DNA from: Candidatus Ryanbacteria bacterium CG10_big_fil_rev_8_21_14_0_10_43_42 | GTDB lineage: Bacteria > Patescibacteriota > Minisyncoccia > Ryanbacterales > 2-02-FULL-48-12 | Length of the DNA: 64,000 nt | Direction: 5' to 3' | Assembly: GCA_002793915.1 (NCBI GenBank) | Contig: PFEF01000006.1 | Span: 97,368-161,367, forward strand | Shown: positions 2,298 through 21,651 of the stretch, piece after piece | How the letters are laid out: each line of letters starts with the position of its first letter | Position numbering within the stretch: the stretch's first letter is position 1 | Program-made: the position numbers and the translations under genes | Notes under the pieces: model-generated | Database searches by the model: none | Told to the model about the DNA's origin: nothing | Seen by the model: the letters and a program-made list of their open reading frames with translations, nothing else

Positions 2298-2480
2298 TCC
2301 CGTAGCGTACTACAGGTTGCTTGATAAGTCAAATGGTTTATTACAATAATATACACCAAGAATAGCGCAACCAAGGATAAGAATATGAATACTTTTCTTT
2401 GATGAAATAAATGACAATCACTTACTTTAAATAACGGTGTTTATGGTTTCCTATCTACTGCGGTATACTCAAAGTATAGC

Positions 2481-3086
2481 ATGAAACGCAAATATATTAT
2501 TGGTATAGATGAAGTAGGACGCGGACCGTTGGCAGGGCCCCTTACCCTTGGTGCCGTTGCCTTTTTCGGAGAAGGGGAAGAGCTTTCGAATGATTTCGGT
2601 TTAGGTGGCATAAAAGATTCAAAAAAACTAAGTCATAAAAGAAGGGTTGAATGGGCGATGAAAATAACAAAACAGCTTCCTTATGCGGTTTCATCAATAC
2701 ATGCTGGCGAAATTGATAGCGGTGGCATAAGTCGTGCGCTTAGAAAAGCGGTAGCGGATGTTTTGGAAAAACTGTTAACGGAAAACCCATCAATTTTTCA
2801 TTCAGAGTGTGTTGTTCAGTTGGATGGAGGATTGCATGCGCCTGACTTATTTACCCACCAGGAAACTATTATAAAAGGGGACGAAACTAATGCGCTTATA
2901 TCCGCCGCGTCCATTGTAGCCAAGGTATGCCGAGATGCCTATATGTGCCGGCTTCATGAAAAATATCCCGTATATGGTTTTGATAAGCATAAGGGGTACG
3001 GCACGCGATTGCATATGGATAATATTATTAAACATGGTCTCTCGCGTCACCATCGCAAGTCTTTTTGCCGGAATTTTATAAAATAA
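2481..3086 (+). CDS. rnhB: ribonuclease HII
   Basis: N-terminal GIDEVGRGPLAGPL motif and the typical length (201 aa). Confidence 0.85.
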   Translation: MKRKYIIGIDEVGRGPLAGPLTLGAVAFFGEGEELSNDFGLGGIKDSKKLSHKRRVEWAMKITKQLPYAVSSIHAGEIDSGGISRALRKAVADVLEKLLTENPSIFHSECVVQLDGGLHAPDLFTHQETIIKGDETNALISAASIVAKVCRDAYMCRLHEKYPVYGFDKHKGYGTRLHMDNIIKHGLSRHHRKSFCRNFIK

Positions 3087-3162
3087 GCGAACTATATACT
3101 ACAAAGTTACCCCAACTTTATACCCCCTTGCTCTTTATTTTTTTATGTTGTAGAGTGTTCGT

Positions 3163-3444
3163 ATGTCTATACGCATGAGGCACACAAAGGCTCATAGAAA
3201 CGAACGGCGGGCTCATCACGGGCTTAAGCCTCTTCAGGCGGGTACATGTCCGAAATGTAAATCAATAATAATGCCGCATAATGTATGCGCAAATTGCGGT
3301 ACGTATCGTGGGCGGGAAGAAATTGACGTACTTGCAAAGCTCACGAAAAAAGAACGAAAACAGAAAGAGAAAGAACTTGCCGCCACCGAACCGAGTAACC
3401 AGCCGCAAGGCGAACCTAGTATGGAAGAAATGTCCAAAAGTTAA
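3163..3444 (+). CDS. rpmF: 50S ribosomal protein L32 with a C-terminal charged extension
   Basis: Basic N-terminus, a CxxC...CxxC zinc ribbon and YRGRE motif. 93 aa, versus about 57 typical, with a K/E-rich tail. Confidence 0.8.
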   Translation: MSIRMRHTKAHRNERRAHHGLKPLQAGTCPKCKSIIMPHNVCANCGTYRGREEIDVLAKLTKKERKQKEKELAATEPSNQPQGEPSMEEMSKS

Positions 3445-3513
3445 TTAAACAAAGAAAGACGGGTTTATTTTCTCAATGTAAGCTAAATCTACTATCTAAA
3501 CTAGTTCCTTAAA

Positions 3514-4419
3514 ATGGCTTCACGACATCTTGCGCGATCTATTGCCATGCAGACGCTTTACGAATGGGACTTTAAAGAAACCATCGGTATTTTGGTTTCG
3601 CGTGAAGATGTGTCCTCCATATTAAAGCGGGATATTGACGAGTTTGGTCCCGGACTTGAGGAAAAAGCGTTTGCTAAAAATTTAGTAGACGGTGTGCTTG
3701 ATCATGCAAGTGATATTGATGCCATTATTGAGAAGGCCGCACCCGAGTGGCCCATTAAACAAGTGGCAATTGTAGACCGCAATGTTCTTCGCATCGGTCT
3801 TTTTGAGCTTCTGTTTGGAAAATATGGAGAAGTGCCGCCCAAGGTTGCCATTAATGAATCTATTGAGCTTGCGAAAACATTTGGCGGGCCAAATTCCGGC
3901 AAGTTTATTAACGGTGTGCTGGGAACGGTATATCGGGAAATTGGTGAACCGGGCAAAGAGGATAAAGTACGCAGAGACTTGTCTCCCGAAGAGCGTGCCG
4001 AGCTTCCTGTGGAAAATAAAGTAGGGGCGGTTGTATTTCGGAAAGAAAAAAATACCAATCATTTCGCGCTTGTACATGATGTTTTTGGATATTGGACGCT
4101 CGCGAAAGGAAGCCCTGAAGAGCACGAAAAATTGGAAGACACCGCAATCCGGAAAGTTTTGGATGAAGCCGGGCTGGGGCATTCCCATGTAGTGGAGAAA
4201 TTGGGCGAGAATGAATACGTGGCGCATGATCCCGAAAAAGGGCGTGTGCGTCGACGTGTTACCTATTTTTTACTGGAAACAGCGGACACAAAACTCACAC
4301 TTAAGGAAACGGGCGGTCTTGATGATGTACGGTGGTTTGCGGAAAAAGAACTTTCCGATCTGAAAATGTACGATGATGTTCGTGGATTTTTTGCGAAAGC
4401 GCTTGAAATTATAAATTAG
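3514..4419 (+). CDS. nusB: NusB antitermination factor fused to a C-terminal Nudix hydrolase domain
   Basis: The N-terminal 150 aa are NusB-like (MQTLYEWDF..., FELLF). The C-terminal 130 aa carry a Nudix box, GSPEEHEKLEDTAIRKVLDEAGL (Gx5Ex7R.u.EE.Gu). Confidence 0.7.
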   Translation: MASRHLARSIAMQTLYEWDFKETIGILVSREDVSSILKRDIDEFGPGLEEKAFAKNLVDGVLDHASDIDAIIEKAAPEWPIKQVAIVDRNVLRIGLFELLFGKYGEVPPKVAINESIELAKTFGGPNSGKFINGVLGTVYREIGEPGKEDKVRRDLSPEERAELPVENKVGAVVFRKEKNTNHFALVHDVFGYWTLAKGSPEEHEKLEDTAIRKVLDEAGLGHSHVVEKLGENEYVAHDPEKGRVRRRVTYFLLETADTKLTLKETGGLDDVRWFAEKELSDLKMYDDVRGFFAKALEIIN

Positions 4420-4490
4420 TTTGTAGGTTGTAGGTGTCAGGTTAGAGGGGAAACTCTAAAGCTTGGCACCTAAAACCTAATATTTCTCTT

Positions 4491-5180
4491 ATGAAAGACG
4501 TAACTAAACTTGAAGAAATTCTTGGGGTAACTTTTAACGACAAAGATCTTTTAAAATCAGCCCTGACGCATCGATCGTATTTAAATGAAAATCCGTCATG
4601 GCCGCTTCCGCAAAATGAGCGTCTTGAGTTTTTAGGTGACGCTGTTTTGGAACTGGCGGTAACGCGTTATTTGTATCTTAATTTTGAGAATCCGGAAGGC
4701 GAGCTTACGAGTTATCGTGCGGCATTGGTAAATTCTATCATGCTTACGCGTTTGGCGGCCGATCTGAATCTTAACGATTTTTTACTTCTTTCTCGCGGTG
4801 AAGCCAAGGATGAAGGCAAGGCGCGCATGTATATTTTGGCAAATACGGTGGAAGCCGTTATAGGTGCAATCTATCTGGACGGGGGGTATGATGTTGCGGA
4901 GGCCTTCATTATGCGTGTCCTTATTCCTTATATGGATGAGGTTCTGGAAAAGAAATTATATCGGGATGCAAAAAGTTATTTTCAAGAAAAAGCACAGGAA
5001 GTTGAAGGTATTACGCCTACGTATCATGTTATAAAAGAATGGGGACCTGATCATGCCAAAAACTTTATTGTGGGAGTATATATCGGAGATAATCTTGTTG
5101 CCGAAGGAGAAGGGTCGTCAAAACAAATTGCGCAACAGCATGCCGCAGAAAATGGTATTAAGATAAAGGAGTGGGAGTGA
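4491..5180 (+). CDS. rnc: ribonuclease III
   Basis: RNase III signature ERLEFLGDAVLELAV and a C-terminal dsRBD-like region. Confidence 0.85.
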   Translation: MKDVTKLEEILGVTFNDKDLLKSALTHRSYLNENPSWPLPQNERLEFLGDAVLELAVTRYLYLNFENPEGELTSYRAALVNSIMLTRLAADLNLNDFLLLSRGEAKDEGKARMYILANTVEAVIGAIYLDGGYDVAEAFIMRVLIPYMDEVLEKKLYRDAKSYFQEKAQEVEGITPTYHVIKEWGPDHAKNFIVGVYIGDNLVAEGEGSSKQIAQQHAAENGIKIKEWE

Positions 5181-5234
5181 TGTATCTATCCTTTTTTCCT
5201 TACCACTTCCGATTTTCTACGGTATACTAATTTT

Positions 5235-7454
5235 GTGAGCATCCTTAAACAACTGGAAATTACCGGATTTAAATCGTTTGCCAAGCCGGTAACGATAGAG
5301 TTTGACGCGCCCATTACCGGTGTTGTCGGCCCGAACGGTTCGGGAAAATCAAATGTATCAGAGGCTATCAAATGGGTACTGGGCGAACAATCCATGAAGT
5401 CTTTGCGTGGAAAGCGCGGGGAAGATCTTATTTTCAACGGTTCGGGTTCGGTGTCTCAGCTCGGCAAAGCAAAGGTTTCCATTACGTTCGATAATAGTAG
5501 TAAGGTGCTTCCTCTTGATTTTGATGAGGTGATTGTTTCGCGTGAGGTATATCGGGACGGAGCGAATGAATATAAATTAAACGGATCTTCCGTGCGCCTA
5601 AAGGATGTTGTGGAACTTATGAGTAATGTGGGCGTAGGCGGATCGGGGCATCATATTATAAGCCAGGGGGAGGCGGATAGGATTTTACATGCATCACCCA
5701 AAGAAAAGCGCGCCATGCTGGAGGATGCGCTGGGGCTTAAAATTTATCAGATAAAGAAAGCGGAAACGGAGCGCAAGCTTGAGCATACGGAAACAAACAT
5801 GGTCCAAGTGGAGGCTCTTCGTCGCGAAGTGGCGCCGCATCTGACATTTTTACGCACGCAGGCGAAAAAAGTGGAAGCATCAAGTAAGTTACGGGAAGAG
5901 CTTAGGCAAAACGTTGCGGAATATATTGCACGGGAAAAGCATGCCATTGATAAAGAATATGCTCGTGTGGAGGCGGAGGAGGCGCCGTATAAAAAAGCAT
6001 ATGAAGAACTTGAAAAAGATTTGCATCTCATACGTTCGTCTTTTCCGAAAGGAGATGAGAAAATAGATACGGCTCACCAAAAAAAACAAGAGACGTACCG
6101 GCATGAGATGAATGAAATAGAGGAGCAGTATCGTGGATTAGAGCGTGAATTCGGCCGTTTGGAAGGACAACTTGCTGTTCTGGCAAAATCTTCCGCACCT
6201 ATTGTCTCATCACACGATGAACGCCATATTGCGGTCGGGGAGGTTAAGGACATTTTAGAGGAAATGCTTTCAATGCTTGCCGATATGGAGAACAGTAGTT
6301 CCGTAAGGGATGTGCAGGAAATTATTACACGCATACGCACGCACGCGGAGTCATTTTTGGAGCGTCTTTCCGTAAAGAAACCAAAAGAGGATATTGACAG
6401 TCAGCCCGCGGAGGAAATACATACTCTCACGAAAGAGAAGGAGTTTATGAATGATGCTATGCGGAAGCTGGCGGAGAAACGGGATGAAATGAGCCTGGTG
6501 ATGCAAAAAGAGAATGAGGACTTTATATCTTCGCGTCGGGCGCACGCGGACGCGGAGCGGCGCATGCACGATCGGGAAGCGGAATTATATACGGTAAAGG
6601 AGACGCTTCAGAAGTATGCGTTTATGAAAGAGCGTGTTCGGCTTCGGGAAGATGAATGGACGCGCGAGCATGAAGAAATGAAGCATATAGTGGAACAAGC
6701 GGACATGGGACGTTATACAGAGGCGTTTTCCCGGGAGGAACGTGAGCAACTTCGCCGGTCTATCCAACGGCTTAAGATAAAACTGGAAGAAGTGGGCGGT
6801 ATTGATACTGCTGTTTTGGAGGAATATAACGAAGTCGCCGAGCGCGATCAATTTTTAGAAAAAGAACTTTCCGATTTGCGGGAATCGGACGAATCTCTTC
6901 GCGCGCTGATGGAAGAATTACAAACACACCTCGAACATGATTTTCAAAAGGGTATTACGCAGATTAATATCGAGTTTGCTCATTTGTTTCAGACAATGTT
7001 TGGGGGAGGCAACGCTTCTCTTATTACCGTTAAAGAAAAAAAACGAAAACAAAACCGCGAGGAAGAATATGAGCAGGAAGAAAATGGCGTTGAGGATGAT
7101 GGGGAAGCCGGTATAGAGATAGCTGTAGATCTTCCGCGGAAACGTATTAAAAATCTTGATATGCTTTCCGGCGGAGAGCGCGCTCTTACCTCAATTGCTC
7201 TTTTATTTGCGATGTCTATTGTCAATCCGCCGCCGTTTTTGGTGCTTGATGAAACGGATGCGGCGCTCGATGAAGCAAATTCACAGCGGTACGGTGCCAT
7301 GCTTCAGCAACTTTCCAAAGAAACACAGCTTATTGTCATAACGCATAATCGTCAAACAATGAAAGAAGCGGGTATTCTTTACGGGGTTACAATGGGATCG
7401 GACGGTATCTCGAAGATATTATCGGTTAAATTTAATGAAGAAAAAACGCCATAA
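5235..7454 (+). CDS. smc: chromosome segregation SMC-like ATPase (short, 739 aa)
   Basis: N-terminal Walker A (GPNGSGKSN), a long coiled-coil region, and a C-terminal ABC signature LSGGERALTSIALLFA with Walker B VLDETDAALD. Sits at the conserved rnc-smc position. Confidence 0.7.
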   Translation: MSILKQLEITGFKSFAKPVTIEFDAPITGVVGPNGSGKSNVSEAIKWVLGEQSMKSLRGKRGEDLIFNGSGSVSQLGKAKVSITFDNSSKVLPLDFDEVIVSREVYRDGANEYKLNGSSVRLKDVVELMSNVGVGGSGHHIISQGEADRILHASPKEKRAMLEDALGLKIYQIKKAETERKLEHTETNMVQVEALRREVAPHLTFLRTQAKKVEASSKLREELRQNVAEYIAREKHAIDKEYARVEAEEAPYKKAYEELEKDLHLIRSSFPKGDEKIDTAHQKKQETYRHEMNEIEEQYRGLEREFGRLEGQLAVLAKSSAPIVSSHDERHIAVGEVKDILEEMLSMLADMENSSSVRDVQEIITRIRTHAESFLERLSVKKPKEDIDSQPAEEIHTLTKEKEFMNDAMRKLAEKRDEMSLVMQKENEDFISSRRAHADAERRMHDREAELYTVKETLQKYAFMKERVRLREDEWTREHEEMKHIVEQADMGRYTEAFSREEREQLRRSIQRLKIKLEEVGGIDTAVLEEYNEVAERDQFLEKELSDLRESDESLRALMEELQTHLEHDFQKGITQINIEFAHLFQTMFGGGNASLITVKEKKRKQNREEEYEQEENGVEDDGEAGIEIAVDLPRKRIKNLDMLSGGERALTSIALLFAMSIVNPPPFLVLDETDAALDEANSQRYGAMLQQLSKETQLIVITHNRQTMKEAGILYGVTMGSDGISKILSVKFNEEKTP

Positions 7455-7523: not shown

Positions 7524-7949
7524 ATGATAGGCACCATGGTAACTATACGACTCCAACGCGTGGGAAAACGGAACGATCCGAGTTATCGGGTTGTTTTGAC
7601 GGATACCCGTCGCGGACCAAAAAGTGGTGGGTTTATCGAGATTCTAGGATCTTACAATCCCAAACAAAAAGGGTCTTTCCGCGTGAAGGAAGATCGTGTT
7701 TCGCATTGGATTGCATCCGGCGCACAGGCATCGGATACGGTGCATAATTTGCTTGTCAGTGCAAAAGTAATTGATAAGCCAAAAAGGAATGTTGTACCGC
7801 CCGCAAAACCAAAAGCGGAAAGCGAAGAAAAGGAAGCAGTAAAGGAAAAAGAAGAAAGCGTGGAAGATAAACCGTCTGAATCTAAGACGGCAGATGAGAA
7901 AAAAGATGAGAATCCTCCGGCGGAACAGGAAGTATCGGAAGAAAAATAA
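7524..7949 (+). CDS. rpsP: 30S ribosomal protein S16 with a C-terminal K/E-rich extension
   Basis: MVTIRLQRVGKRNDPSYRVV is an S16 N-terminus. 141 aa, with an acidic/basic tail after about residue 85. Confidence 0.85.
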   Translation: MIGTMVTIRLQRVGKRNDPSYRVVLTDTRRGPKSGGFIEILGSYNPKQKGSFRVKEDRVSHWIASGAQASDTVHNLLVSAKVIDKPKRNVVPPAKPKAESEEKEAVKEKEESVEDKPSESKTADEKKDENPPAEQEVSEEK

Positions 7950-9579: not shown

Positions 9580-9608
9580 GTTGACCGCCGGGCAGGATAT
9601 GTATATAA
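9580..9608 (+). promoter_or_regulatory. canonical sigma70 promoter (TTGACC, 17 nt spacer, TATAAT) upstream of the 16S rRNA gene
   Basis: Consensus hexamers with optimal spacing, about 140 nt upstream of the 16S 5' end. Confidence 0.45.
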
Positions 9609-9744
9609 TGGACGCACACTCATATTTTGCAAGATCGTTGAAAATCTATTCTATTGTTCCGGTCGAACACGGTGCGCACTTTTTGTGTGCTGTGTTCATA
9701 TTCTGAATATTATAATGAGTAATATCACTATGGTATTTGGATTT

Positions 9745-11215
<1,471 letters not shown>

Positions 11216-11344
11216 TAAGGATATACATCTCATGCTAACGGCATGAGTATGGTCGTTCGAATATTTGCGGATATATGGCAAGTATTTGAAACGGTTTGGT
11301 CGTCACCAATCAGAAAACGACTCCGGAACAATAGAATAGGCGTT

Positions 11345-11386
11345 CAACACAAAAAGCCGCCGTCAAACGGCGGTTTTTTGTGTTGG
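11345..11386 (+). terminator. long perfect hairpin with a T-run in the 16S-tRNA spacer
   Basis: caacacaaaaagccgcc / ggcggttttttgtgttgg, a 17 bp stem with a 7 nt loop. Confidence 0.4.
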
Positions 11387-11544
11387 TGGGAGTAAGTAAA
11401 TGGAATGCAGGAAATGGCAATAATCGTTTATGGGCGGTTATCATATTGAAAAATAGAGTAAAACAGTGTAGGCTATGTTCTATAGATACGGGTGTTCAGC
11501 TCAAGCCGGTTTAATCCGTTCTGAACAAGTGCCTTATAATTAAT

Positions 11545-11618
11545 GGGCGTGTAGCTCAGCTGGTTAGAGCGCGTCACTGATAATGACGAGGTCGGAGGTT
11601 CGAGTCCTCCCACGCCCA
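11545..11618 (+). tRNA. tRNA-Ile (anticodon GAT)
   Basis: Cloverleaf read by hand: acceptor gggcgtg/cacgccc, anticodon loop ctGATaa, T-loop ttcgagt. No encoded CCA. Confidence 0.9.
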
Positions 11619-11628
11619 CAGAATGGAT

Positions 11629-11717
11629 TTAGAGCGGAGAAGAGTAATAGGAATTACTCTTCTCCTGATAACTAGAAAATACCTGTGATATTTTCTAGAG
11701 GTCGGAGGTTCGGAGTA
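11629..11717 (+). pseudogene. degenerate tRNA-Ile-derived element: a copy from the D-arm 3' side to the T-loop, with both anticodon-stem halves replaced by perfect hairpins
   Basis: It shares ttagagcg, ctgataa and a 14 nt exact aggtcggaggttcg with the upstream tRNA-Ile. In place of the anticodon-stem halves it has inserted hairpins gagaagagtaat/attactcttctc and ctagaaaata/tattttctag. Confidence 0.5.
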
Positions 11718-11792
11718 ACGTAATCCAAGTGGACATAAAGATACACACAGTAATAAATGCGCTTCTTGCGTATTTTTTTGTATACTATATCT

Positions 11793-12764
11793 ATGAAGCA
11801 GAATAAATTAAAAATTGGTGTTGTAATGGGCGGACCGTCGAGCGAGCATGATATTTCATTAATGACGGGTAGGAATGTTATAGATACTCTTCGCGGATTA
11901 GGGCATACGGTAACACAGGTATATGTTACCAAATCGGGCAATTGGCTCTATAACAACAGTGCTTCCGCTTTCGATCCGGTAGAGATATGCGCACGTCATG
12001 ATGTTATGTTCAATGCTATGCACGGGGAATATGGTGAGGATGGGCAGGTACAGCAAATTTTTGACAGATGCAATGTGCGGTATACGGGATCTCGCACAAC
12101 GGCGGCGGCACTTGCGATGAACAAAATAATCAGCAAAGATATTTTTAATAAGGCGGGAATCCTTACGCCAAGAGCCGTAGCGTTCGAGCGGAATAATTTT
12201 GATATGAAGGAGGCTCTTTCTCGCGTGCATCTCATGACGGCACCTCCCTGGGTAGTGAAGCCCGCAAGTCGCGGTTCTTCCGTGGGTGTTACCATAGCAC
12301 GCACACTTCCGGGGTTAGCCGACGGTTTGGAAACCGCATTCGGGTATGATAATCATGTTGTAGTGGAAGAATTTATAAAAGGACGGGAGATTACCTGTGG
12401 AGTACTTCAGGATTTTGCCGGAGAGGATGTGCACGCGCTTCACCCGCTGGAGATTATTCCGCCGGACGGAAAGTTCTTTGATTATGAAGTAAAGTATGAT
12501 GGTTCTACAAAAGAAGTTCCAGCACCGTTCTTCGGCGAAATGCTTAAAAATATTAAGGCACAGGCCGTTGCGGCTCATAATGCGCTCGGATGTCGGCATT
12601 ATTCCCGTACGGATATGATTATTAAGGGAACGAAAATATACGTTTTGGAAACGAATACCCTACCGGGACTCACAAGCGAATCGCTTTTCCCGAAACAGGC
12701 GCGATTAGCTAAAATGGAATTTCCGCAGTTACTGGAACATTTGGTGCGTTTGGCAACGGCATAA
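11793..12764 (+). CDS. ddl: D-alanine--D-alanine ligase
   Basis: MKQNKLKIGVVMGGPSSEHDISL N-terminus and an ATP-grasp pattern. The ORF track starts at 11757, but the ATG at 11793 fits the family N-terminus. Confidence 0.8.
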   Translation: MKQNKLKIGVVMGGPSSEHDISLMTGRNVIDTLRGLGHTVTQVYVTKSGNWLYNNSASAFDPVEICARHDVMFNAMHGEYGEDGQVQQIFDRCNVRYTGSRTTAAALAMNKIISKDIFNKAGILTPRAVAFERNNFDMKEALSRVHLMTAPPWVVKPASRGSSVGVTIARTLPGLADGLETAFGYDNHVVVEEFIKGREITCGVLQDFAGEDVHALHPLEIIPPDGKFFDYEVKYDGSTKEVPAPFFGEMLKNIKAQAVAAHNALGCRHYSRTDMIIKGTKIYVLETNTLPGLTSESLFPKQARLAKMEFPQLLEHLVRLATA

Positions 12765-12792
12765 CAGATCTTTTACAAGGAGGAAGTGTTTT

Positions 12793-13536
12793 ATGAGACG
12801 CATGCGATGGCAGAGTTGGGCTTTGGGATTTTCTCTTTTATATATTTTAGTTAAGGGATTTGGTTCATCTGAATATGCGAGTATGGTAACGCCCGCACGC
12901 TTTTATATACAGTCTTATTTTGTAGAAACGCGCCTGGTTGTATACGAAGGGGAATACTGGCGTGTTGTACTACACGAAAAGCAGAATCCGCATTTCTTGC
13001 GGAGCATCGTGCGTTTAAAACGGGTATGCGAATCTCCCGTATGCCTAACGTCTGCTGAAAGGCGAGAACGGGATGAGATAGAACTCGTACTACATACTTT
13101 GGTACTTAGATATGGCGCCACCTACACCAACTTTATGCGTCTTATGAATAATGCTTATCGTTCGCCGATTCCTATGCCGGTAATGCATTATCACTTTATT
13201 CCGCGCTACAAAACCCCATTTTCTTTTGGAGAGATATATTTTCATGATAAGGCGTATGGGCGTCATTATTCTGAAAACGAAGAAAAGCCGGTTCCTCCCG
13301 CACTTATGCTTCTCATAAAAAATATTGTAGGGAAAGAATTTAAAGACCGTATGCCAAAGCCATCCGCAGAGGTGGCTTTTTTCTTGAAAAAAAGGAAGAA
13401 CCATGGTATGGTTTTTTGTAGATTTCAAATTAAAATATTTCGAAATTTACGAGGGCGAATTTCGGTAGCTCATCTGGTAGAGCGGTTTGATATGCCCCCA
13501 GCATATCAAACTTGCACTGCGGAGGGTGGAAAGTAA
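12793..13536 (+). CDS. hypothetical protein (possible HIT-like fold); the 3' end runs into the tRNA-like element
   Basis: 247 aa ORF with no family recognised with confidence. The last 27 codons are translated from the tRNA-Ala-like sequence, so the true C-terminus or the gene's integrity is uncertain. Confidence 0.3.
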   Translation: MRRMRWQSWALGFSLLYILVKGFGSSEYASMVTPARFYIQSYFVETRLVVYEGEYWRVVLHEKQNPHFLRSIVRLKRVCESPVCLTSAERRERDEIELVLHTLVLRYGATYTNFMRLMNNAYRSPIPMPVMHYHFIPRYKTPFSFGEIYFHDKAYGRHYSENEEKPVPPALMLLIKNIVGKEFKDRMPKPSAEVAFFLKKRKNHGMVFCRFQIKIFRNLRGRISVAHLVERFDMPPAYQTCTAEGGK

Positions 13537-13566
13537 CGGGGTTACTTTCCACGGTTCGAGTCCTAG
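13465..13566 (+). pseudogene. degenerate tRNA-Ala-derived element with two perfect hairpin insertions
   Basis: Its D-arm gtagctcatctggtagagcg, the cttgcactgcgg segment and the T-loop ggttcgagtcc are identical to tRNA-Ala 150 nt downstream. The 5' anticodon-stem half is replaced by tttgatatgc/gcatatcaaa, and gtggaaagtaa/ttactttccac is inserted before the T-arm. No acceptor pairing is present. Confidence 0.5.
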
Positions 13567-13611
13567 GAGGGTAAAAGACTTTAATAATAGGTTTAGAGAC
13601 GTAAATAATAT

Positions 13612-13684
13612 GGGCCCGTAGCTCATCTGGTAGAGCGCCGCACTTGCACTGCGGAGGTGGCAGGTTCGAGTCCTGTCGGGTCCA
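13612..13684 (+). tRNA. tRNA-Ala (anticodon TGC)
   Basis: Acceptor gggcccg/cgggtcc with a G3:U70 pair, anticodon loop ctTGCac, T-loop ttcgagt. Confidence 0.9.
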
Positions 13685-13812
13685 CATCGTAAATCTCAAT
13701 AACCGTTTTTAACCTCCCGCTGTCCGCGTGCCGGCAAGGCGGAAAGAGGGAGTTTTTGGTTTGCTTAGCCGCTTTCTTGTTTACAAAACCCCTTAAATCC
13801 GATATGATTTAA

Positions 13813-14071: not shown

Positions 14072-15190
14072 ATGAACACCCAAACCTTAAACATGGGCCT
14101 TAACAAGGCTGGTCAAGCAAAGAAAGATGAGTTTTATACTCAGCTCGTTGATATTGAAAAAGAGTTGAAGCATTACAAAAATCAATTTCGAGGCAAGGTT
14201 GTTTATTGCAACTGCGACGATCCGTTTGAGAGTAACTTTTTTAAATATTTCGCTGGTAATTTTAATGCACTGGGATTGAAAAAACTAATTGCGACGAGCT
14301 ACAAGCCGTCACCTATTGCAAATACACAGCTTGGACTATTTGGTGACGAAGAAGTGCTGACAAAATCCAAAGGCCGTCCAAAAGTGACTGCCAATAAATT
14401 TATCATCAACGAAGTTGATGATTTTGATGGCGACGGTGCTTTTGATTTACGTGATGTCGCTGAACAGCTCAAAGCAAACAAAAACAACGAATGGGCACCG
14501 TTAGATAGCGAGGGAGATTTTAGAAGTCCAGAAAGTATAGAGTTGCTTAAACAAGCTGACATTGTAGTGACAAATCCGCCATTTTCACTCTTTCGTGAGT
14601 ATGTAGCCCAACTTGTTGAATACGATAAGAAATTTTTAATACTTGGGGACCAAAACGCCATAACATACAAGGAGATTTTTAAGTTAATTAGCGACGATAA
14701 AATATGGCTCGGTTACGATAATGGAGGCACGAAATGGTTTCAAGTCCCGATGGATTACGACATTCCAACTGAATCAAGAAAGAAAATCGTAAACGGCGTG
14801 AAGTATTTCAGTATGGGAAGAATTATGTGGTTTACAAATCTTGAGACCACAAAACGTCACGAGAGACTGACTTTGTATAAAACATACACCGCACAAGAAT
14901 ATCCTAAATACGACAACTATCCTGCAATAAACGTTGATAAAGTCTCTGATATTCCAATGGACTACGATGGAATAATGGGTGTCCCTATTACTTTCATCGA
15001 TAAATACAATCCAGAGCAGTTTGAAATATTAGGCATTACTGATAGACAAAACACGTCTGGTCTCCGAACGAAAAAATATACAGAAGCGGACAATCCTAAA
15101 TACAACGACTTAAATGCTCGTAGCGTGATAAAAACTGGCAATACTTACAAAGCTGTGTACGCGCGACTTTTAATAAGAAATAAAAAATAA
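14072..15190 (+). CDS. N6-adenine DNA methyltransferase (NPPF motif; EcoRI-methylase-like family)
   Basis: VVTNPPFSL is catalytic motif IV of amino-methyltransferases. The N-terminal DEFYT..CDDPFES region is as in the EcoRI-methylase family, recalled from memory. Translationally coupled to its neighbours. Confidence 0.55.
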   Translation: MNTQTLNMGLNKAGQAKKDEFYTQLVDIEKELKHYKNQFRGKVVYCNCDDPFESNFFKYFAGNFNALGLKKLIATSYKPSPIANTQLGLFGDEEVLTKSKGRPKVTANKFIINEVDDFDGDGAFDLRDVAEQLKANKNNEWAPLDSEGDFRSPESIELLKQADIVVTNPPFSLFREYVAQLVEYDKKFLILGDQNAITYKEIFKLISDDKIWLGYDNGGTKWFQVPMDYDIPTESRKKIVNGVKYFSMGRIMWFTNLETTKRHERLTLYKTYTAQEYPKYDNYPAINVDKVSDIPMDYDGIMGVPITFIDKYNPEQFEILGITDRQNTSGLRTKKYTEADNPKYNDLNARSVIKTGNTYKAVYARLLIRNKK

Positions 15191-15192
15191 TT

Positions 15193-16296
15193 ATGAAAAT
15201 TGAACTACACAGAATCAAAATACGTGAGGTAGTCAATGGCTACGCAGACAATCATGAAGAAGGTGTGGTTGCTTATGGTGGCAAGCTCGATATTCGACCT
15301 AAATATCAACGTGAATTTGTCTATAAAGATAAACAGCGCGATGCGGTCATTGATACCGTAAAGAAAAATTTTCCGCTCAATGTGATGTATTGGGTAAAAA
15401 GCGACGACGATAGCTTTGAGGTGTTAGACGGACAGCAAAGAACAATCAGTATCGGGCAATTTGCGAATGGAGATTTTTCGGTGGACTTTAATGGTCGCAC
15501 TGCTATGTTCCACAACCTTACTAAAGAAGAACAGGGGCAAATCCTCGATTACGAATTGATGGTGTACTTCTGTGAAGGAACAGATAAGGAAAAGTTAGAT
15601 TGGTTCAAGATTATCAACATCGCAGGCGAACGTCTTACCGATCAAGAATTGCGAAATGCTGTTTACACTGGCACATGGCTTTCGGACGCAAAACTTAAGT
15701 TTAGTAAATCTGGCTGCGCGGCATATCTTTTGGCAAATGATGGCGGCGCATTGCTTACAGGTTCACCAATTAGACAAGAGTACCTAGAAACTGCACTCTC
15801 GTGGATCAATAGCGGCGAAATTGCCGAATATATGGCAAAGCATCAGCACGACAAGAATGCCGATGAGCTGTGGAAGTATTTCCAAAATGTTATTGCGTGG
15901 GTGCGTCAGACATTTCCGAACTATCGCAAAGAAATGGCGCACGTAAATTGGGGCGAGTTGTACAACCAATTCAAGGATAAAAAGCTAAACGCCAAGAAAC
16001 TTGAAACAGAAGTTGCAGAATTTATGAAAGACGAAGATGTAACAAAAAAATCTGGTATCTATCCGTATGTTTTGACGCGAAATGAGCGGCATTTAAATAT
16101 CCGTTCATTTACTGACAATATGAAGCGAGAGGCGTACGAGAGGCAGAAAGGTATTTGTGCATTCTGCAAAGAAAAGTTTGATATTTCTGATATGGAAGCT
16201 GATCACATTACCCCTTGGCATGAGGGCGGCAAAACTAACGCAAAAAATTGCCAGTTGTTGTGCAAAGACGATAACCGAAGGAAATCTGGAAAGTAA
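15193..16296 (+). CDS. DUF262 (ParB-like, DGQQR) domain fused to a C-terminal HNH endonuclease
   Basis: LDGQQRTISIGQF is the DUF262 hallmark. The C-terminus CAFCKEKF...ADHITPWHEGGKTNAKNCQLLCKDDNRRK is an HNH motif. Its start overlaps the methyltransferase stop (taattATG). Confidence 0.7.
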   Translation: MKIELHRIKIREVVNGYADNHEEGVVAYGGKLDIRPKYQREFVYKDKQRDAVIDTVKKNFPLNVMYWVKSDDDSFEVLDGQQRTISIGQFANGDFSVDFNGRTAMFHNLTKEEQGQILDYELMVYFCEGTDKEKLDWFKIINIAGERLTDQELRNAVYTGTWLSDAKLKFSKSGCAAYLLANDGGALLTGSPIRQEYLETALSWINSGEIAEYMAKHQHDKNADELWKYFQNVIAWVRQTFPNYRKEMAHVNWGELYNQFKDKKLNAKKLETEVAEFMKDEDVTKKSGIYPYVLTRNERHLNIRSFTDNMKREAYERQKGICAFCKEKFDISDMEADHITPWHEGGKTNAKNCQLLCKDDNRRKSGK

Positions 16297-16306
16297 CACT
16301 AACACC

Positions 16307-19300
16307 ATGAGGCTACCTCCCCAAACAATACGAACACTGTTAGAGGCAATTTTTTGGGGATCTGCTGTTTCGTTTACCTTTATTCTTGGATCCGCTATTG
16401 GATCATGGTTTTCGTTGAATATTCTCCCAGACTATTCATGGTTGATTACTCGTAAGGGCGAGGCATTTTATATTTTTGTATTCGCTCTTTTATTCTCTTA
16501 TCTTTACTTTCGAGATTTTCTACAAGTAGTATGGAAGGTCATAAAGAGTTCGAGATTTGATATTTTTATTGCGGCAGGATTAAGTGCATTGGTGGTCTTT
16601 AGCAATAAAAATATACTTTCTACATACATACAGGAGCATGTAATGGAACTAAACAGCGACAGCGTATTACTTTTCTTTATTATTGTATTTATTTTGTCGC
16701 TATCATGCGTACTGTATGTGATACTGCAAATGTTTAACCGCAGAAAGAAAGTGGACTCAAAATTTGCAAATGATAACCCAATTAGGGATTCCGAAGGCGA
16801 TCTCCTGGATTTTAGTACAAAAGCAAATTCGTTCGCAGAGAATATCTTTCATGCTTCACAGGGTAAGGGTTTAGTGTTTGGTGTAGATGCCCCTTGGGGA
16901 TCTGGTAAGTCATCATTTTTAAATCTCTGTAAGAGGTATTGGGAAATCAAACATAAAAACGAGTTAATTGTGTACGAATTTAGTCCCTTACACTATTCAA
17001 CAGATGCTAATTTACTTGAGAGATTTGTGGATGGTCTAATAAAAGAAATACAAAAGAATGTTTTTATTCCTGAGATACGCCCACTTTTTTCTCAATATTC
17101 TAAGCTCATCAAGATAGTAAATGGATTTAGTATTTTTGGGGTAAAAATTCCAGAATTTGCTAGTAGGCGCACCATTAACGATGTACATAATGATTTAGAG
17201 TGTGCACTAAATGGAATCAATAGGAGAATAATCGTTATTGTAGACGACCTAGACCGCATAGAATTAAAAGAGATTAAGAACGTATTGTTTGCAATACGTG
17301 AAAGTTTTAAATTCCCCAATATTTCGTATGTCTTATGTTACGACACAGAGAATATAAATGCATTGGAGGCAGATACGCCAGAGATTGAGACGGTGAATGA
17401 ATTCCTGGAGAAATTCGTCAATATTAAGATAAGTATTTTCCTCGATAAGAAAAACCTAGAGAATTTCGTTTCAAAAGAATTGAAAAAGGTAATTGAGGAC
17501 AAAACAACAGATCCAGAACTTGTTGCTGTCGTATTAAGCGGACTACGCGACATATTTCAATCACCTGAATTTCATCGTTATACGTCCTTTGTCGGAGACA
17601 TTAGAAAATTGAAGCGACTTGTGAATACGGTGGTTCTTTTAGAGTTGTATAAAGTAAACTTCGATAAAGCAGATATTGATAAGTTTGATTTAGCTCATTT
17701 ACTACTGATTTATATTAATTATCCAAGTATTTTCAGAAAAATTTATAACACCGAAACTGCAGGTGGTTATGGTTTTTTCTCTGCAGTTGGTCCCTATGAC
17801 AGTGAGTTTTATCCAAAAGATAAGAAGAGAAACAATGGAGAAAGGAGCGACACATATGAAAATTCTGATGTATACAACGAATATCTAGAGGACTTAACAG
17901 ATAATCAAAAGTTTCTCATTGAGCAGATATTTAATGTCACTAGGCGACTTAAGCGAGCAAAAAATAATGATAGTGCAAACCACTACATCAATAATGAAGA
18001 TTCATATCGAAAGATAGACAGTGTATCGGAAGACATAAAAACTTCCCTGGCATGTTTCAATGGTGACAAATTTACTGGTTCTGGTCGCAATCTAGAAGAT
18101 TATTTGCGTTTAATTGCTCATCTAGCGCCGCCAGAAGAAGAAAAGCAATTTGCACCTTTCAAAAACTGGCGAGACAAGATCATTAGCGAAGATATAACTA
18201 TAGAACAACTTTTTAATCAACCAGAATTTTCTGTTGAACTTGGCGAGCAAAAGCGACAAAAACTTTGGCGTCTCATTGTAAACAACACAAGGAAACTGAA
18301 TCAAAATGTTGCTGGTAATTTAATAAGGTATCTGACACAAAATATATCTAAATATTCCCTGTTTGAAAACGAGGTTCTTGGCGTAGGACTACGTCATCAT
18401 GATCTTCCTTATTTTTTGGTACGACTGCTTAATGATGCTGGATATAAAGGTAGCATGAATGGTAATAATACGGAGGAAAACATCAAAGAAATCGCTGATT
18501 GGATTTTCGGTGAAGACACCCACAAAGATGAAGGAATACTAGACGCCTTGTTAGAAGATGAGCGAGGTATTCTTGGTCTATATGATTCACTTAGTTTGAG
18601 ATTGATCTGCTGTTCCGATAGAGGTGGCGATATTTTCAACGTATCTAGAGCAATAGCAAAACACGGTAATAAAGAAGCTCCTACTGCGGGGGACACGAGA
18701 ATCATTGTAAAAGAAGAAATGCGTGAAATTTCACAGAAAATTTTTGGTGTGTTTAAATCACGATACATTGACAAAAAGATTAACATTTTTTCGGAAGTTC
18801 AAAAGTTGTCTTTGGATAATATAACGGGAGAATATTCCACTTATGTGCGAAATCAAGTGAAAGGCGGTGTTATATCTGAAGATAAGTTACAGGCAGATGT
18901 TGAATATACAAAATTTAATGCTTTAGGTTTTATTGTTTACCAGCTAGGTGATGACCAGATAAATCACGGGGTTGGTTGTGGTCTTTATGATCCTCTCGGA
19001 AATGCTGACAAAGGAATGATCAAAAACTTGATGAATAAGTATCTATTTGAGAGGTGCTTTAATCCGACAACCAGTGAGAATAATTATGAGAATCTTTTAA
19101 GTTTGCTTTTGAGGAATATTCCATTTGATGCTCTCAGGGAAGATCATTTTGGTAAAATTCCTGACTTTAAGTTAAAAACGATTGTTGGTGTTCTTGATAT
19201 ACAAACTCTCTCTGAATTTTGGAAGGAACATAGAGAAAAAATCAAGAAACTAAACTTTGAGAATTCAGGTAAAAAAATATTTATGGGAACACGATATGTA

Positions 19301-19414
19301 AATTCAGATTCTGAGGATATTTTTGCGTCCTATCAAAACGACTTGCCACGTGTATATAAGGCACTCGATGATTATATCGATAACCCTACTGGCAAAGGGG
19401 AGTCGCCCGCATAG
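16307..19414 (+). CDS. KAP-family P-loop NTPase with an N-terminal 4-5 helix transmembrane region
   Basis: Walker A GVDAPWGSGKSSFLNL and Walker B IIVIVDDLDR within a KAP-like region, preceded by about 180 aa of transmembrane helices. The ORF track begins at 16157, but the ATG at 16307 sits just after the upstream stop. Confidence 0.7.
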   Translation: MRLPPQTIRTLLEAIFWGSAVSFTFILGSAIGSWFSLNILPDYSWLITRKGEAFYIFVFALLFSYLYFRDFLQVVWKVIKSSRFDIFIAAGLSALVVFSNKNILSTYIQEHVMELNSDSVLLFFIIVFILSLSCVLYVILQMFNRRKKVDSKFANDNPIRDSEGDLLDFSTKANSFAENIFHASQGKGLVFGVDAPWGSGKSSFLNLCKRYWEIKHKNELIVYEFSPLHYSTDANLLERFVDGLIKEIQKNVFIPEIRPLFSQYSKLIKIVNGFSIFGVKIPEFASRRTINDVHNDLECALNGINRRIIVIVDDLDRIELKEIKNVLFAIRESFKFPNISYVLCYDTENINALEADTPEIETVNEFLEKFVNIKISIFLDKKNLENFVSKELKKVIEDKTTDPELVAVVLSGLRDIFQSPEFHRYTSFVGDIRKLKRLVNTVVLLELYKVNFDKADIDKFDLAHLLLIYINYPSIFRKIYNTETAGGYGFFSAVGPYDSEFYPKDKKRNNGERSDTYENSDVYNEYLEDLTDNQKFLIEQIFNVTRRLKRAKNNDSANHYINNEDSYRKIDSVSEDIKTSLACFNGDKFTGSGRNLEDYLRLIAHLAPPEEEKQFAPFKNWRDKIISEDITIEQLFNQPEFSVELGEQKRQKLWRLIVNNTRKLNQNVAGNLIRYLTQNISKYSLFENEVLGVGLRHHDLPYFLVRLLNDAGYKGSMNGNNTEENIKEIADWIFGEDTHKDEGILDALLEDERGILGLYDSLSLRLICCSDRGGDIFNVSRAIAKHGNKEAPTAGDTRIIVKEEMREISQKIFGVFKSRYIDKKINIFSEVQKLSLDNITGEYSTYVRNQVKGGVISEDKLQADVEYTKFNALGFIVYQLGDDQINHGVGCGLYDPLGNADKGMIKNLMNKYLFERCFNPTTSENNYENLLSLLLRNIPFDALREDHFGKIPDFKLKTIVGVLDIQTLSEFWKEHREKIKKLNFENSGKKIFMGTRYVNSDSEDIFASYQNDLPRVYKALDDYIDNPTGKGESPA

Positions 19415-19468
19415 CGGGCGGTTTGCGCGCGCACTGGGAGGGTGGGGCAAACGCAAAGACATTTTTTG
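19404..19468 (+). terminator. GC-rich tandem hairpins ending in a T-run; the KAP gene stop codon lies in the first loop
   Basis: cgcccgc-atag-gcgggcg, then gtttgc..gcaaac, then attttttg. Confidence 0.4.
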
Positions 19469-19542
19469 CCTACTTTGTTATAATTCACAAAAAGCGGACA
19501 TGTCGACCCGCTCTCATATAAATCAACTAACCTTTTATAACT

Positions 19543-19887
19543 ATGGCTAAAAAAATTTCAACTGAAGAAGTAAAGAGTAAATTGGATAAAAACGAGAACT
19601 TTTATCTCATTGATACATTGGCGGCCAACAGCTTTGAGGCGCGCCACATCCCCGGAGCAAAAAGCATGCCGTATGGAACTGATTTTATAAAACAATTTGA
19701 GCAAGTAATTAACGCCCAGAAAGACGCAGAGATCATAACTTATTGCGCCTCAAATGGATGTCAGCTATCAGCGTTGGCCGCCAATGCTCTTGAAGAAGCC
19801 GGCTATACGAATGTTGGTCATTATGTTGACGGTCTCGCAGGTTGGCAAAACGCAGGCCATAAATTTGAAGGAGAAGCGACGAAATAG
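19543..19887 (+). CDS. rhodanese-domain sulfurtransferase
   Basis: Active-site loop YCASNGCQ in a 114 aa single-domain protein. Confidence 0.7.
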   Translation: MAKKISTEEVKSKLDKNENFYLIDTLAANSFEARHIPGAKSMPYGTDFIKQFEQVINAQKDAEIITYCASNGCQLSALAANALEEAGYTNVGHYVDGLAGWQNAGHKFEGEATK

Positions 19888-19985
19888 TTTGGATTAAGGG
19901 AGTAAAATTATGCGCACACTGGGCGAGTGTGGCAAGCACAATATGGTAAACTACAAGGGTCGATTAATAACTAACCATAAAAACT

Positions 19986-20186
19986 ATGAAAACTCTAAAA
20001 TGTGATATGTGCGACCATGAAGCACAGGGCGAAACGTTTGGGGAGTGGATGAATAATCTCAAGCCACATTATACCGAGGCGCATGCTGAAGTTATGAAGG
20101 GAAAGGCAGATCTAACTCCCGAACAACAAAAGACGGAAATGCAGAAGTGGATGGACGAGAACAAGGCAAGATTCGAAGCCGCGTAG
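19986..20186 (+). CDS. small DUF1059-like protein
   Basis: 66 aa, MKxLKCDMCDHEAQGET...HYTEAHAEVM pattern resembling DUF1059 (recalled from memory). Confidence 0.35.
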   Translation: MKTLKCDMCDHEAQGETFGEWMNNLKPHYTEAHAEVMKGKADLTPEQQKTEMQKWMDENKARFEAA

Positions 20187-20304
20187 TTTTGCCGCACAAA
20201 CATCGCCGAAGCCACAGAGCGAACACGAAGCAAACACCGAGCTCCATTTAGTAAATACCCGGAAAAGTCCTTATTTTAAATCATGTCATGCCTCTTTTGA
20301 TCCT

Positions 20305-20326
20305 CTATATCACTAGATTGATATAG
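20305..20326 (+). promoter_or_regulatory. palindrome ctatatca-ctagat-tgatatag upstream of the fic gene; candidate operator
   Basis: Perfect 8 bp inverted arms, about 160 nt upstream of the Fic start. Confidence 0.25.
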
Positions 20327-20487
20327 TAAAAATGCTTGATTTATCAGTGGATACTAGGCCAGTTTTTTAGGGCTGATTATGTCGGCTTTTTGCACCAAGT
20401 CGTAATACAAATATCCTTATTGCACTTTTTGTGGATATCTGGTAATATGGGAATACGTGTTTCAACTTAGACAAAACAAGTAAAACT

Positions 20488-21651
20488 ATGGAGAACAAAG
20501 CACAGCAAAATGACAAATTTATGGCAGGTACTCACAAAAAGCACTTCTGGGGTAAGGATTATGAATACCAGAGTTTTTTGCCGTCTCCGGTAAATCATCC
20601 CTACGAGTGGCAAGATAAAAGAATTCCTGTTCTCCTTGAAGAGGCAATTAGACTTGTCGGAGAATTAAATGCTTATTCCATCCTTGTGCCGGATGTAGAT
20701 TTTTTCATTCAAATGCATGTGCGCAATGAAGCGGTAAAATCCAGTCGCATTGAAGGCACTCGCACTGGTATGGATGAAGCTGTTTTGCCGGAAGAAGAAA
20801 TCTCTCCGGAAAAAAGAGATGACTGGACTGAGGTACAAAATTATATTGCCGCAATGAATAAGAGTATTGCCCGATTGAATGAGCTCCCGATCTCGATGAG
20901 GCTTTTACAAGAAGCTCATAAGATTTTATTGTCCGGCGTTCGTGGTGAACACAAACAACCGGGAGAAGTTCGCACCGCACAAAATTGGATTGGCGGCACA
21001 AGTATTCAGACCGCCGCTTTTATTCCACCCCATCCGGAAGATATGGGAGAGGCCTTAAAGGACCTTGAATTTTTTTGGCATAACAAAGGATTGAATATGC
21101 CCCACTTAATCAAGATGGCTATTTCGCATTATCAGTTTGAGACGATTCACCCGTTCAATGACGGCAACGGGAGAATTGGCCGTATGCTCATCGGGCTTCA
21201 TCTCATCGAGCTTGGAATTTTGCGAAAACCAACCCTGTATCTTTCGGACTTCTTTGAAAGAAATAAAGGTGCGTATTATGACGCGCTTACTTTTGTGCGA
21301 GAGAGGAATGATCTGGATCAATGGATAGTCTTTTTCCTCTCGGCAGTTATTGAGACGGCCAAAAAAGGCAAAGATACGTTCGAGAAAATTATCGATCTGC
21401 GTGCTCGCTACGAGAAACAAACTATGGAGCTCGGACGCCGGGCAAAACTGGCTCATAAACTTTTATTACAGTCATTTTCCATGCCTGCTTTTAAAGTTTC
21501 TGATGCATCAAAGTATCTTAACGCTTCAAACACGGCGACCAACACCCTTGTCGGCGAAATGGAGCGCGTTGGTATTCTTAAGGAAATTACCGGTTTTTCC
21601 CGTAACCGGATTTTTGTCCTGCACGAGTATCTGGAACTTTTTAAGAGATAA
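20488..21651 (+). CDS. fic: Fic-family protein (AMPylator/toxin-like) with an intramolecular inhibitory motif
   Basis: Fic motif [12 protein letters not shown], an N-terminal SSRIEG ([ST]xxxE[GN]) inhibitory helix, and a C-terminal winged-helix-like tail. Confidence 0.85.

Follow-up and report, generated by a model that had tools for sequence, protein, structure and literature searches.

We analysed a 64,000-nucleotide (nt) stretch of DNA from Candidatus Ryanbacteria (contig PFEF01000006.1; the window in what follows) and identified within it a gene, nusB::nudix, in which the transcription antitermination factor NusB is continued at its C-terminus by a Nudix-fold domain. Few bacterial transcription factors are as conserved or as well studied as NusB, which is described as having a single domain; the first-pass annotation of this DNA gave it as a normally stand-alone protein of about 140 amino acids, with which we agree. 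That annotation also reported a genuine NusB-Nudix fusion, and this is borne out. It is an ancient fusion that purifying selection maintains across Parcubacteria, where both domains recur within a single uninterrupted open reading frame (ORF) in genome after genome.

A NusB-Nudix fusion conserved across Parcubacteria

The gene occupies positions 3514..4419 of the window (+ strand) as a single ATG-to-TAG frame of 301 codons plus stop, uninterrupted throughout and present as such in the ORF list; residue numbers below refer to its 301-amino-acid product. Pfam places NusB at residues 7-141 (E 1.3e-33) and NUDIX at residues 170-293 (E 4e-14). We delimited a NusB domain of residues 1-146 (3514..3951, +) from Pfam NusB, TIGR01951 and Foldseek matches, an interdomain linker of residues 147-165 (3952..4008, +) from AlphaFold2 (AF2) confidence and low pairwise identity, and a Nudix-fold domain of the diadenosine tetraphosphate/hexaphosphate (Ap4A/Ap6A) hydrolase type, residues 166-301 (4009..4416, +), from Pfam, sequence matches to solved structures and Foldseek. 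The linker, about 20 residues long, is predicted to be flexible, with AF2 per-residue confidence (pLDDT) below 50 at residues 149-154. Mean pairwise identity within the family is 0.68-0.70 for NusB, 0.53-0.55 for the Nudix domain and 0.44-0.49 for the linker; the Nudix domain as a whole is constrained.

A search of about 5.8 billion proteins, from which the 120 best matches were taken, returned only proteins of about 300 amino acids carrying both Pfam domains (120/120), with identities from 100% down to 55%. The identical protein is encoded on a public contig of 524 kb. Named sources among the 120 are Parcubacteria (Ca. Ryanbacteria, Giovannonibacteria and Niyogibacteria), and the public annotation, where a name is given, is ‘transcription antitermination factor NusB’. 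The junction between the domains, Y140-R141-E142-x-G144-E145-P146-G147-K148, is nearly invariant among these homologues. The survey across related genomes that the first-pass annotation had suggested was made on one genome per species (GTDB representatives) and gave at least 597 pattern-confirmed matches, the best 80 loci of which we analysed. All 80 matches span residues 1 to ~300, and the fusion ORF is uninterrupted in 79. The informatively named genomes include Nomura-, Lloyd-, Vogel-, Yonath-, Zambryski- and Kaiserbacteria and ‘Paceibacterota/Minisyncoccia’, all belonging to Parcubacteria/Paceibacterota. The fusion is standard in a large group of ultra-small bacteria of the Parcubacteria and candidate phyla radiation (CPR), conserved in at least 80 independently assembled genomes and probably in hundreds. 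To reach more divergent members, the Nudix half was used in an exhaustive HMMER search against 1.84 billion 50%-identity representatives, some of which are fragments; 122 were matched at E ≤ 1e-10, among them 41 full-length NusB-Nudix proteins that together with the window protein form a set of 42 divergent members (~40% identical).

The first-pass annotation had raised the possibility of a stop codon or frameshift splitting two genes near position 3960, and neither is seen in that region of the window. That two adjacent genes were joined by a sequencing or assembly error has a negligible probability and is already refuted by the conservation data, given the single ORF in the window, the 79 of 80 independent genomes and the 120 of 120 database homologues; nothing was found in its favour, the one relative with an interrupted copy being L003. 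In that locus (4475..5362) an in-frame stop takes the very place of the conserved E142, where the NusB domain ends; a sequencing error, a pseudogene and a natural split are all possible explanations. A few record titles depart from the Parcubacteria assignment: L040 is titled ‘Flavobacteriaceae bacterium’ and many TPA_asm loci (within L003-L080) ‘uncultured Candidatus Saccharibacteria’. Since these loci carry the same rpmF-nusB::nudix-rnc-smc block, we treat the labels with caution, and they are probably mis-binned or generic.

The fusion sits in a conserved gene order, rpmF – nusB::nudix – rnc – smc. In the window the fusion is preceded by rpmF (ribosomal protein L32; 3163..3444, +), whose counterpart in L081 and L083 matches Pfam Ribosomal_L32p, and followed by rnc (RNase III; 4491..5180, +), identified by TIGR02191 at 235.6 bits against a cut-off of 166. 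By tblastn rpmF lies immediately upstream of the fusion in 74/80 loci; rnc lies immediately downstream in 79/80, with smc usually next. No terminator-like site was found on the + strand between rnhB and smc (window 2300-5400) and a promoter-like site lies upstream of rnhB, so co-transcription of these genes is plausible.

Family hidden Markov models (HMMs), applied to six-frame ORFs from the window and from the 80 loci of at most 21 kb each, detected no second NusB, and near the fusion yielded only two weak matches to an additional Nudix domain (L029 and L031). No split pair of nusB and nudix genes that might represent an evolutionary intermediate was found. The short, apparently stand-alone proteins among the top matches are fragments of the fusion at contig edges; P0122, for example, has its start 39 nt inside the contig and rnc as the next gene. 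Among Nudix relatives that truly stand alone, P0167 is the nearest, at 38% identity and in an unrelated gene context. Full-text literature searches for NusB with Nudix, with or without CPR terms, found no description of a NusB-Nudix fusion, and NusB goes unmentioned in a survey of the Nudix clan (PMC5389931). The proteins are already in public databases, annotated only as NusB, and we found no description of their two-domain architecture. Pipelines report plain ‘NusB’ and Pfam misses the Nudix domain in degenerate members, leaving the architecture under-reported.

The two halves of the protein and the presumed RNA target

The NusB half scores 122.7 bits against the NCBIfam nusB equivalog TIGR01951, whose curated cut-off is 88.35, and its Pfam NusB match covers profile positions 3-133 of 133. 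The nearest solved NusB sequences are those of Thermotoga (1.4e-20), Aquifex and E. coli. Foldseek aligns the half with E. coli and T. maritima NusB at target template modelling (TM) scores of 0.84-0.89, the match to E. coli NusB in the NusB-S10 complex (3imq) reaching 0.89 with a root-mean-square deviation (rmsd) of 1.6 Å. Residue equivalences were taken from a HMMER alignment to Aquifex NusB, and residue roles from PMC3177189. In Aquifex NusB, F122 stacks on U8 of BoxA and E81 contacts BoxA, the BoxA site running along the C-terminal helix alpha7, and E. coli Y18 is the nusB5 site at the NusE interface (PMC3177189). F131 of the window protein aligns with Aquifex F122, D88 with E81, and Y16 with E. 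coli Y18. All 42 divergent members keep F131, 40 of them keep D88, and 39 have Y or F at position 16. As judged from these alignments, the N-terminal 146 residues are shown to be a canonical NusB that keeps the BoxA- and NusE-binding residues, and it is from helix alpha7 that the linker to the Nudix domain departs. The protein belongs to the NusB family, showing each testable family feature except stand-alone status. In comparison with NusB of E. coli, Aquifex and Thermotoga (TIGR01951/PF01029), it has the same fold, retains F131, D88 and Y16 and is accompanied by a candidate BoxA-like leader element, but adds a C-terminal domain of ~155 residues and is encoded between rpmF and rnc. A second rRNA-acting domain attached to a NusB-type helical RNA-binding domain is also found in RsmB/Sun, the 16S rRNA m5C methyltransferase, and RsmB models of NCBIfam match the NusB half weakly; the NusB-like domain of RsmB, however, is a paralogue and not the NusB of the cell, and its partner is a methyltransferase instead of a Nudix domain.

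The window also contains a 16S rRNA gene (9744-11215). BoxA and promoter assignments in its leader, and in the other leaders considered, are pattern-based. A sigma-70-like promoter site, TTGACC-17-TATAAT (9581-9609, +; 11/12 matches in the promoter scan), is followed by a BoxA-like element, GATCGTTGAAAATCT (9633-9647, +), which sits 97 nt upstream of the 16S gene and ~17 nt past the predicted transcript start and is presumed to be the RNA target of the NusB half. The window leader has its TTGAAAATCT core and downstream CTATTGTTCCGGT in common with the metagenomic 16S leaders L090, L116 and L118, and canonical (C/T)TCTTTGAAAA(T) BoxA forms occur in other leaders. Our ad hoc BoxA pattern was found in 14/51 CPR-type leaders, against 0.5 in shuffled sequences. 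A conserved linkage of the fusion gene itself to 16S was ruled out, as a 16S gene lies within 10 kb of it in only 1/80 loci (L070).

In the window (9633..9663) and in L090, L116, L118, L120 and L137 a spacer of 3 nt separates the BoxA-like TTGAAAATCT from a downstream CTATTGTTCCGG(T), the pair being nearly identical in several metagenomic 16S leaders; what other CPR-type leaders share is TCTTTTATAGTTGTCCTGAT. These may be lineage-specific BoxC-like or leader-helix elements.

The C-terminal domain has the alpha/beta/alpha Nudix fold, with AF2 pLDDT of ~90 within it. By sequence its closest solved relatives are Thermus Ndx1 (an Ap6A hydrolase, 5.6e-9), Chlamydia CT771, the Aquifex Ap4A hydrolase and human NUDT2. 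Ranking by fold gives the same order: Foldseek has a target TM of 0.86 to 3i7u and 1vc8, followed by the mycobacterial MutT1/Rv2985 N-domain, DR1025 and the Nudix domain of NrtR. Ap4A/Ap6A hydrolases (T. thermophilus Ndx1, Aquifex aq_158, Chlamydia CT771, NUDT2 and the MutT1/Rv2985 N-domain) are the best matches in both sequence and structure, and have in common with the window protein the W-T-x-x-K-G motif, a stacking Tyr after the box, a second aromatic and an acid that reads adenine N6. The (d)NTP sanitation offered as one possibility in the first-pass annotation is unlikely with such relatives: the best of the MutT-type models, mycobacterial MutT1, scores 22.8 bits against a cut-off of 475, and the structural similarity to the MutT1 N-domain reflects the shared fold of the ApnA (diadenosine polyphosphate) type.

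Pocket equivalences were obtained from a HMMER alignment to NUDT2, with roles from PMC4734340 and PMC2425470, the former describing NUDT2 K42, Y82, K89, F128 and E130. K198 corresponds to K42, which contacts the P1 phosphate; Y235, the signature Tyr downstream of the box, to Y82, which serves in phosphate contact and adenine stacking; Y286 to F128, the second stacking aromatic; and D288 to E130, which reads adenine N6; R247 is aligned to K89, a Lys near the P1 phosphate site. Over the 42 representatives the pocket and core are kept at W194 (42/42), K198, Y251 and Y286 (41/42 each), W274 (40/42), Y235 and K/R247 (38/42 each) and D288 (33/42). Alignment thus shows an adenine/phosphate pocket of the Ap4A/Ap6A-hydrolase type to be preserved.

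The Nudix box, in contrast to the first-pass annotation, which had quoted GSPEEHEKLEDTAIRKVLDEAGL as intact, fits the reference GX5EX7REUXEEXGU only partly. It extends from G199 to L221 (4108..4176, +) and by direct reading is GSPEEHE KLEDTAI R-K-V-L-D-E-A-G-L, or G199-x5-E205-x7-R213-K214-V-L-D217-E218-A-G220-L221. G199, E205, R213, E218 and G220 are present, but the position of the ‘RE’ Glu is Lys214 (AAA, 4153-4155) and that of the first ‘EE’ Glu is Asp217 (GAT, 4162-4164), so that the window protein lacks the full set of catalytic glutamates. K214 aligns to E58 of NUDT2 and E46 of Ndx1, and this replacement, together with the attachment of the domain to an RNA-binding transcription factor, sets the window protein apart from the free Ap4A/Ap6A hydrolases. 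Of the 120 closest homologues, 68 have K at position 214 and 48 have E; 41 of the 120 share at least 65% identity with the window protein, and K is present in all but one of these (40/41).

Erosion of the box extends well beyond this lineage. The canonical signature GEREEEG occurs in only 24/80 species genomes, and in genomes that do not keep the full set of catalytic residues the ‘RE’ Glu is replaced by K, V, A, I, D, R, N or S, or the Glu after it by K, Q, H, A or D. In the 42-member set E205 is kept in 30, R213 in 28, the ‘RE’ Glu in 10, E217 in 21 and E218 in 35. Degenerate boxes are scattered across a star-like neighbour-joining tree (a quick distance tree), which suggests several independent losses. 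Two degenerate-box proteins, P0203 and P0253, in which Pfam finds NusB alone and no NUDIX, are encoded on contigs 169-930 kb long, take the X position of the conserved rpmF-X-rnc order and are by this shared position true orthologues; at 90% identity, degenerate-box members fall into very small clusters only. The alignments show the catalytic box to be partly lost in the window lineage and more severely in others.

Box glutamates have likewise been lost from the Nudix folds of CF Im25/NUDT21 and NrtR. CF Im25 binds Ap4A/ATP and NrtR binds ADP-ribose, both within RNA-processing or nucleic-acid-binding assemblies. The resemblance to CF Im25 does not extend to specific sequence kinship, as Pfam NUDIX_2 (PF13869) is unmatched in the window protein and different glutamates are lost, and the partner is NusB in the window protein as against CF Im68 for CF Im25 or a winged helix for NrtR. 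RppH and Dcp2 apply Nudix chemistry to RNA 5′ ends, and in Dcp2, too, the Nudix domain comes after a helical domain at the N-terminus; this likeness is one of architecture only, the Foldseek alignments to Dcp2 covering 247-267 columns at an rmsd of ~15 Å.

Proposed role and rival explanations

Our preferred reading, which we hold tentatively and would place slightly below an even chance, is that the Nudix domain is a nucleotide- or RNA-5′-end-binding accessory module on NusB, weakly catalytic or non-catalytic in the window lineage. The host, NusB, would be the BoxA-RNA-binding subunit of the rRNA antitermination complex, tethered by its flexible linker of ~20 residues to a Nudix domain of the NUDT2/Ndx1 branch. 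Selection would maintain ligand binding family-wide, with hydrolysis optional; it may be residual or absent in the window copy and retained in orthologues with a canonical box. The ligand would be an adenine-nucleotide polyphosphate, either free Ap4A or ATP or a pppA- or Np4A-capped RNA 5′ end. A candidate RNA is the 5′-triphosphate end, or an end capped by a dinucleoside tetraphosphate (Np4N), of the nascent BoxA-bearing rRNA leader, which is predicted to start close upstream of BoxA. Binding would take place next to NusB helix alpha7, and the Nudix domain would stabilise or modulate engagement of NusB/S10 during rRNA transcription and RNase III processing.

Attachment beside the BoxA site, the flexible linker and the constant rnc neighbour together fit such an accessory role in a complex for rRNA antitermination and processing, and because the catalytic motif is damaged in the window protein and in many relatives, binding appears more likely than cutting. 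There is precedent for both elements of this reading. CF Im25 is a Nudix protein without the second and fourth Glu of the box that binds Ap4A at ~2.4 µM without hydrolysing it, within an RNA-processing complex (PMC2425470), and in E. coli the enzyme-fold protein SuhB is needed for stable integration of NusB/E into the antitermination complex of rRNA transcription (rrnTAC) and boosts RNase III processing (PMC6614801; bioRxiv 10.64898/2026.03.17.712431). SuhB is comparable as an enzyme-fold, NusB/E-associated protein by analogy only, being a separate polypeptide of the unrelated inositol monophosphatase fold.

Several observations weigh against the binding module as proposed. The AF2 model of the fusion has a mean pLDDT of 90.7 yet a predicted TM score (pTM) of 0.53, and fixes no interdomain geometry. 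The Nudix domain is acidic, with an isoelectric point (pI) of ~5.1, which gives no support to a broad RNA-binding surface, and a general surface of this kind was accordingly set aside. The distance from BoxA to the 5′ end rests on promoter prediction in two leaders, and its value as support for a 5′-end role is weakened because E. coli BoxA likewise lies just after promoter P2 (PMC10250234). Among the 120 closest homologues, E205 is conserved in 114, R213 in 118, E217 in 116 and E218 in 119 (95-99%), and neighbouring helix positions are far more variable; this pattern suggests ongoing metal or phosphate chemistry, and possibly genuine hydrolysis at a modified site. In 36/80 species genomes (~45%) the Arg is kept together with all four Glu, and the ancestral protein and many present-day fusion proteins were or are, to go by their residues, probably active enzymes.

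The last two of these points equally favour what we regard as a possible but on balance unlikely alternative, namely that the Nudix domain is an active pyrophosphohydrolase on the antitermination complex, either RppH-like (pppRNA to pRNA), Np4N-decapping or an ApnA hydrolase. The 5′ end of the BoxA-bearing leader would then be converted, enabling degradation of the leader after RNase III cleavage. The Nudix fold itself, nearest relatives that are real Ap4A/Ap6A hydrolases, the trimming of PPP-RNA to P-RNA by NUDT2 of the same branch (PMC8616924), the near-constant rnc neighbour and a BoxA-like RNA near the predicted 5′ end of the 16S leader all speak for it. It is opposed by the Lys at position 214, matching the NUDT2 glutamate that is mutated in PDB 4ijx (E58A), by the variation of that position among K, E, V, I and A in the family, and by the many orthologues that have lost two to four of the box acids and still keep the domain. 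No RppH family model was matched either, being absent from the 13 NCBIfam matches at E up to 1. Of the RppH-like activity suggested in the first-pass annotation, then, a role at RNA 5′ ends survives as plausible, more likely through binding, and efficient hydrolysis is the less likely part.

It is improbable that the domain is a purely structural, SuhB-like scaffold locking NusB/S10 onto RNA polymerase, NusA and NusG, with nucleotide binding irrelevant. This idea, an analogy, would accord with the E. coli requirement for SuhB and with the dispensability of catalytic residues in many lineages, but the best-conserved residues of the domain form the NUDT2-type adenine/phosphate pocket and no obvious new surface. 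Quite improbable, too, is a fusion without functional coupling, in which two housekeeping genes merged in a streamlined genome and the domains act independently. CPR genomes are small, and the unrelated context of P0167, the closest stand-alone Nudix protein, implies no prior neighbourhood link between nusB and a Nudix gene. Against this, the domain is kept at constant length, in the same gene and synteny, after catalytic loss, which is hard to explain for an independent enzyme, and the fusion is stable down to ~30% domain identity.

A further and distinctly unlikely possibility is that the Nudix domain acts not as an enzyme but as a sensor, either of Ap4A-type alarmones or of whether the nascent rRNA carries ppp, an Np4N cap or p at its 5′ end, tuning the loading of NusB/S10 on BoxA. 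If so, the Parcubacteria would have, built into NusB, a means of coupling rRNA antitermination and RNase III processing to stress or growth, and enzyme-to-pseudoenzyme transitions would have recurred across the radiation. More generally, should the domain contact the leader 5′ end or sense Ap4A-type nucleotides, RNA 5′-end chemistry or alarmone levels would be tied directly to antitermination and processing, as a natural counterpart of the SuhB requirement in E. coli. A major uncultivated lineage, with hundreds of species-level genomes, uses a two-domain NusB whose second domain appears to be drifting from enzyme to pseudoenzyme.

Other features of the window and related loci

Two further proteins carry domains related to the fusion. 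In L142 (5001..8225) we identified an RNase E/G family protein of 1074 amino acids, P0262, with two tandem C-terminal Nudix-like domains that have degenerate boxes and are related to the NusB-fused domain (E 5.6e-10); this Nudix type is here joined once more to an RNA-processing protein, one that is a sensor of RNA 5′ ends and that is known from a single contig at 2x coverage. P0193 (L143, 3605..5338) is a protein of 577 amino acids that ends in a partial NusB and Nudix module, with a weak cold-shock-domain match upstream. Its gene lies between an NB-ARC NTPase gene and, past a transposase, a HEPN_Swt1 gene, which may mean that a defence-like locus has recruited the module.

Downstream of rnc in the window, the SMC protein (5235..7454, +) is only 739 amino acids long, and its relatives are likewise short (~700 amino acids in L081). 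It matches the NCBIfam SMC_prok_B equivalog at 604.6 bits against a cut-off of 567, in two stretches over the head halves of the 1181-position profile, and Pfam finds no hinge domain in it. Ribosomal protein S16 (7524..7949, +) has 141 amino acids, the Pfam domain at residues 12-70 being followed by a long Lys/Glu-rich C-terminal tail.

The region 9744..13685 contains, in order, the 16S gene, tRNA-Ile (11545), a D-Ala-D-Ala ligase gene (11757..12764), an ORF of 247 amino acids with no family match (12793..13536) and tRNA-Ala (13612). No 23S rRNA gene was found in the 64-kb window; the rRNA operon is therefore split, with protein genes between the spacer tRNAs. Beyond it lies a defence-like island (14072..21651) comprising an EcoRI-type adenine methylase, a GmrSD_N+HNH protein, a KAP-family NTPase of 1085 amino acids and a Fic protein, and coinciding with the lowest GC content of the window (0.367 at 16-20 kb).

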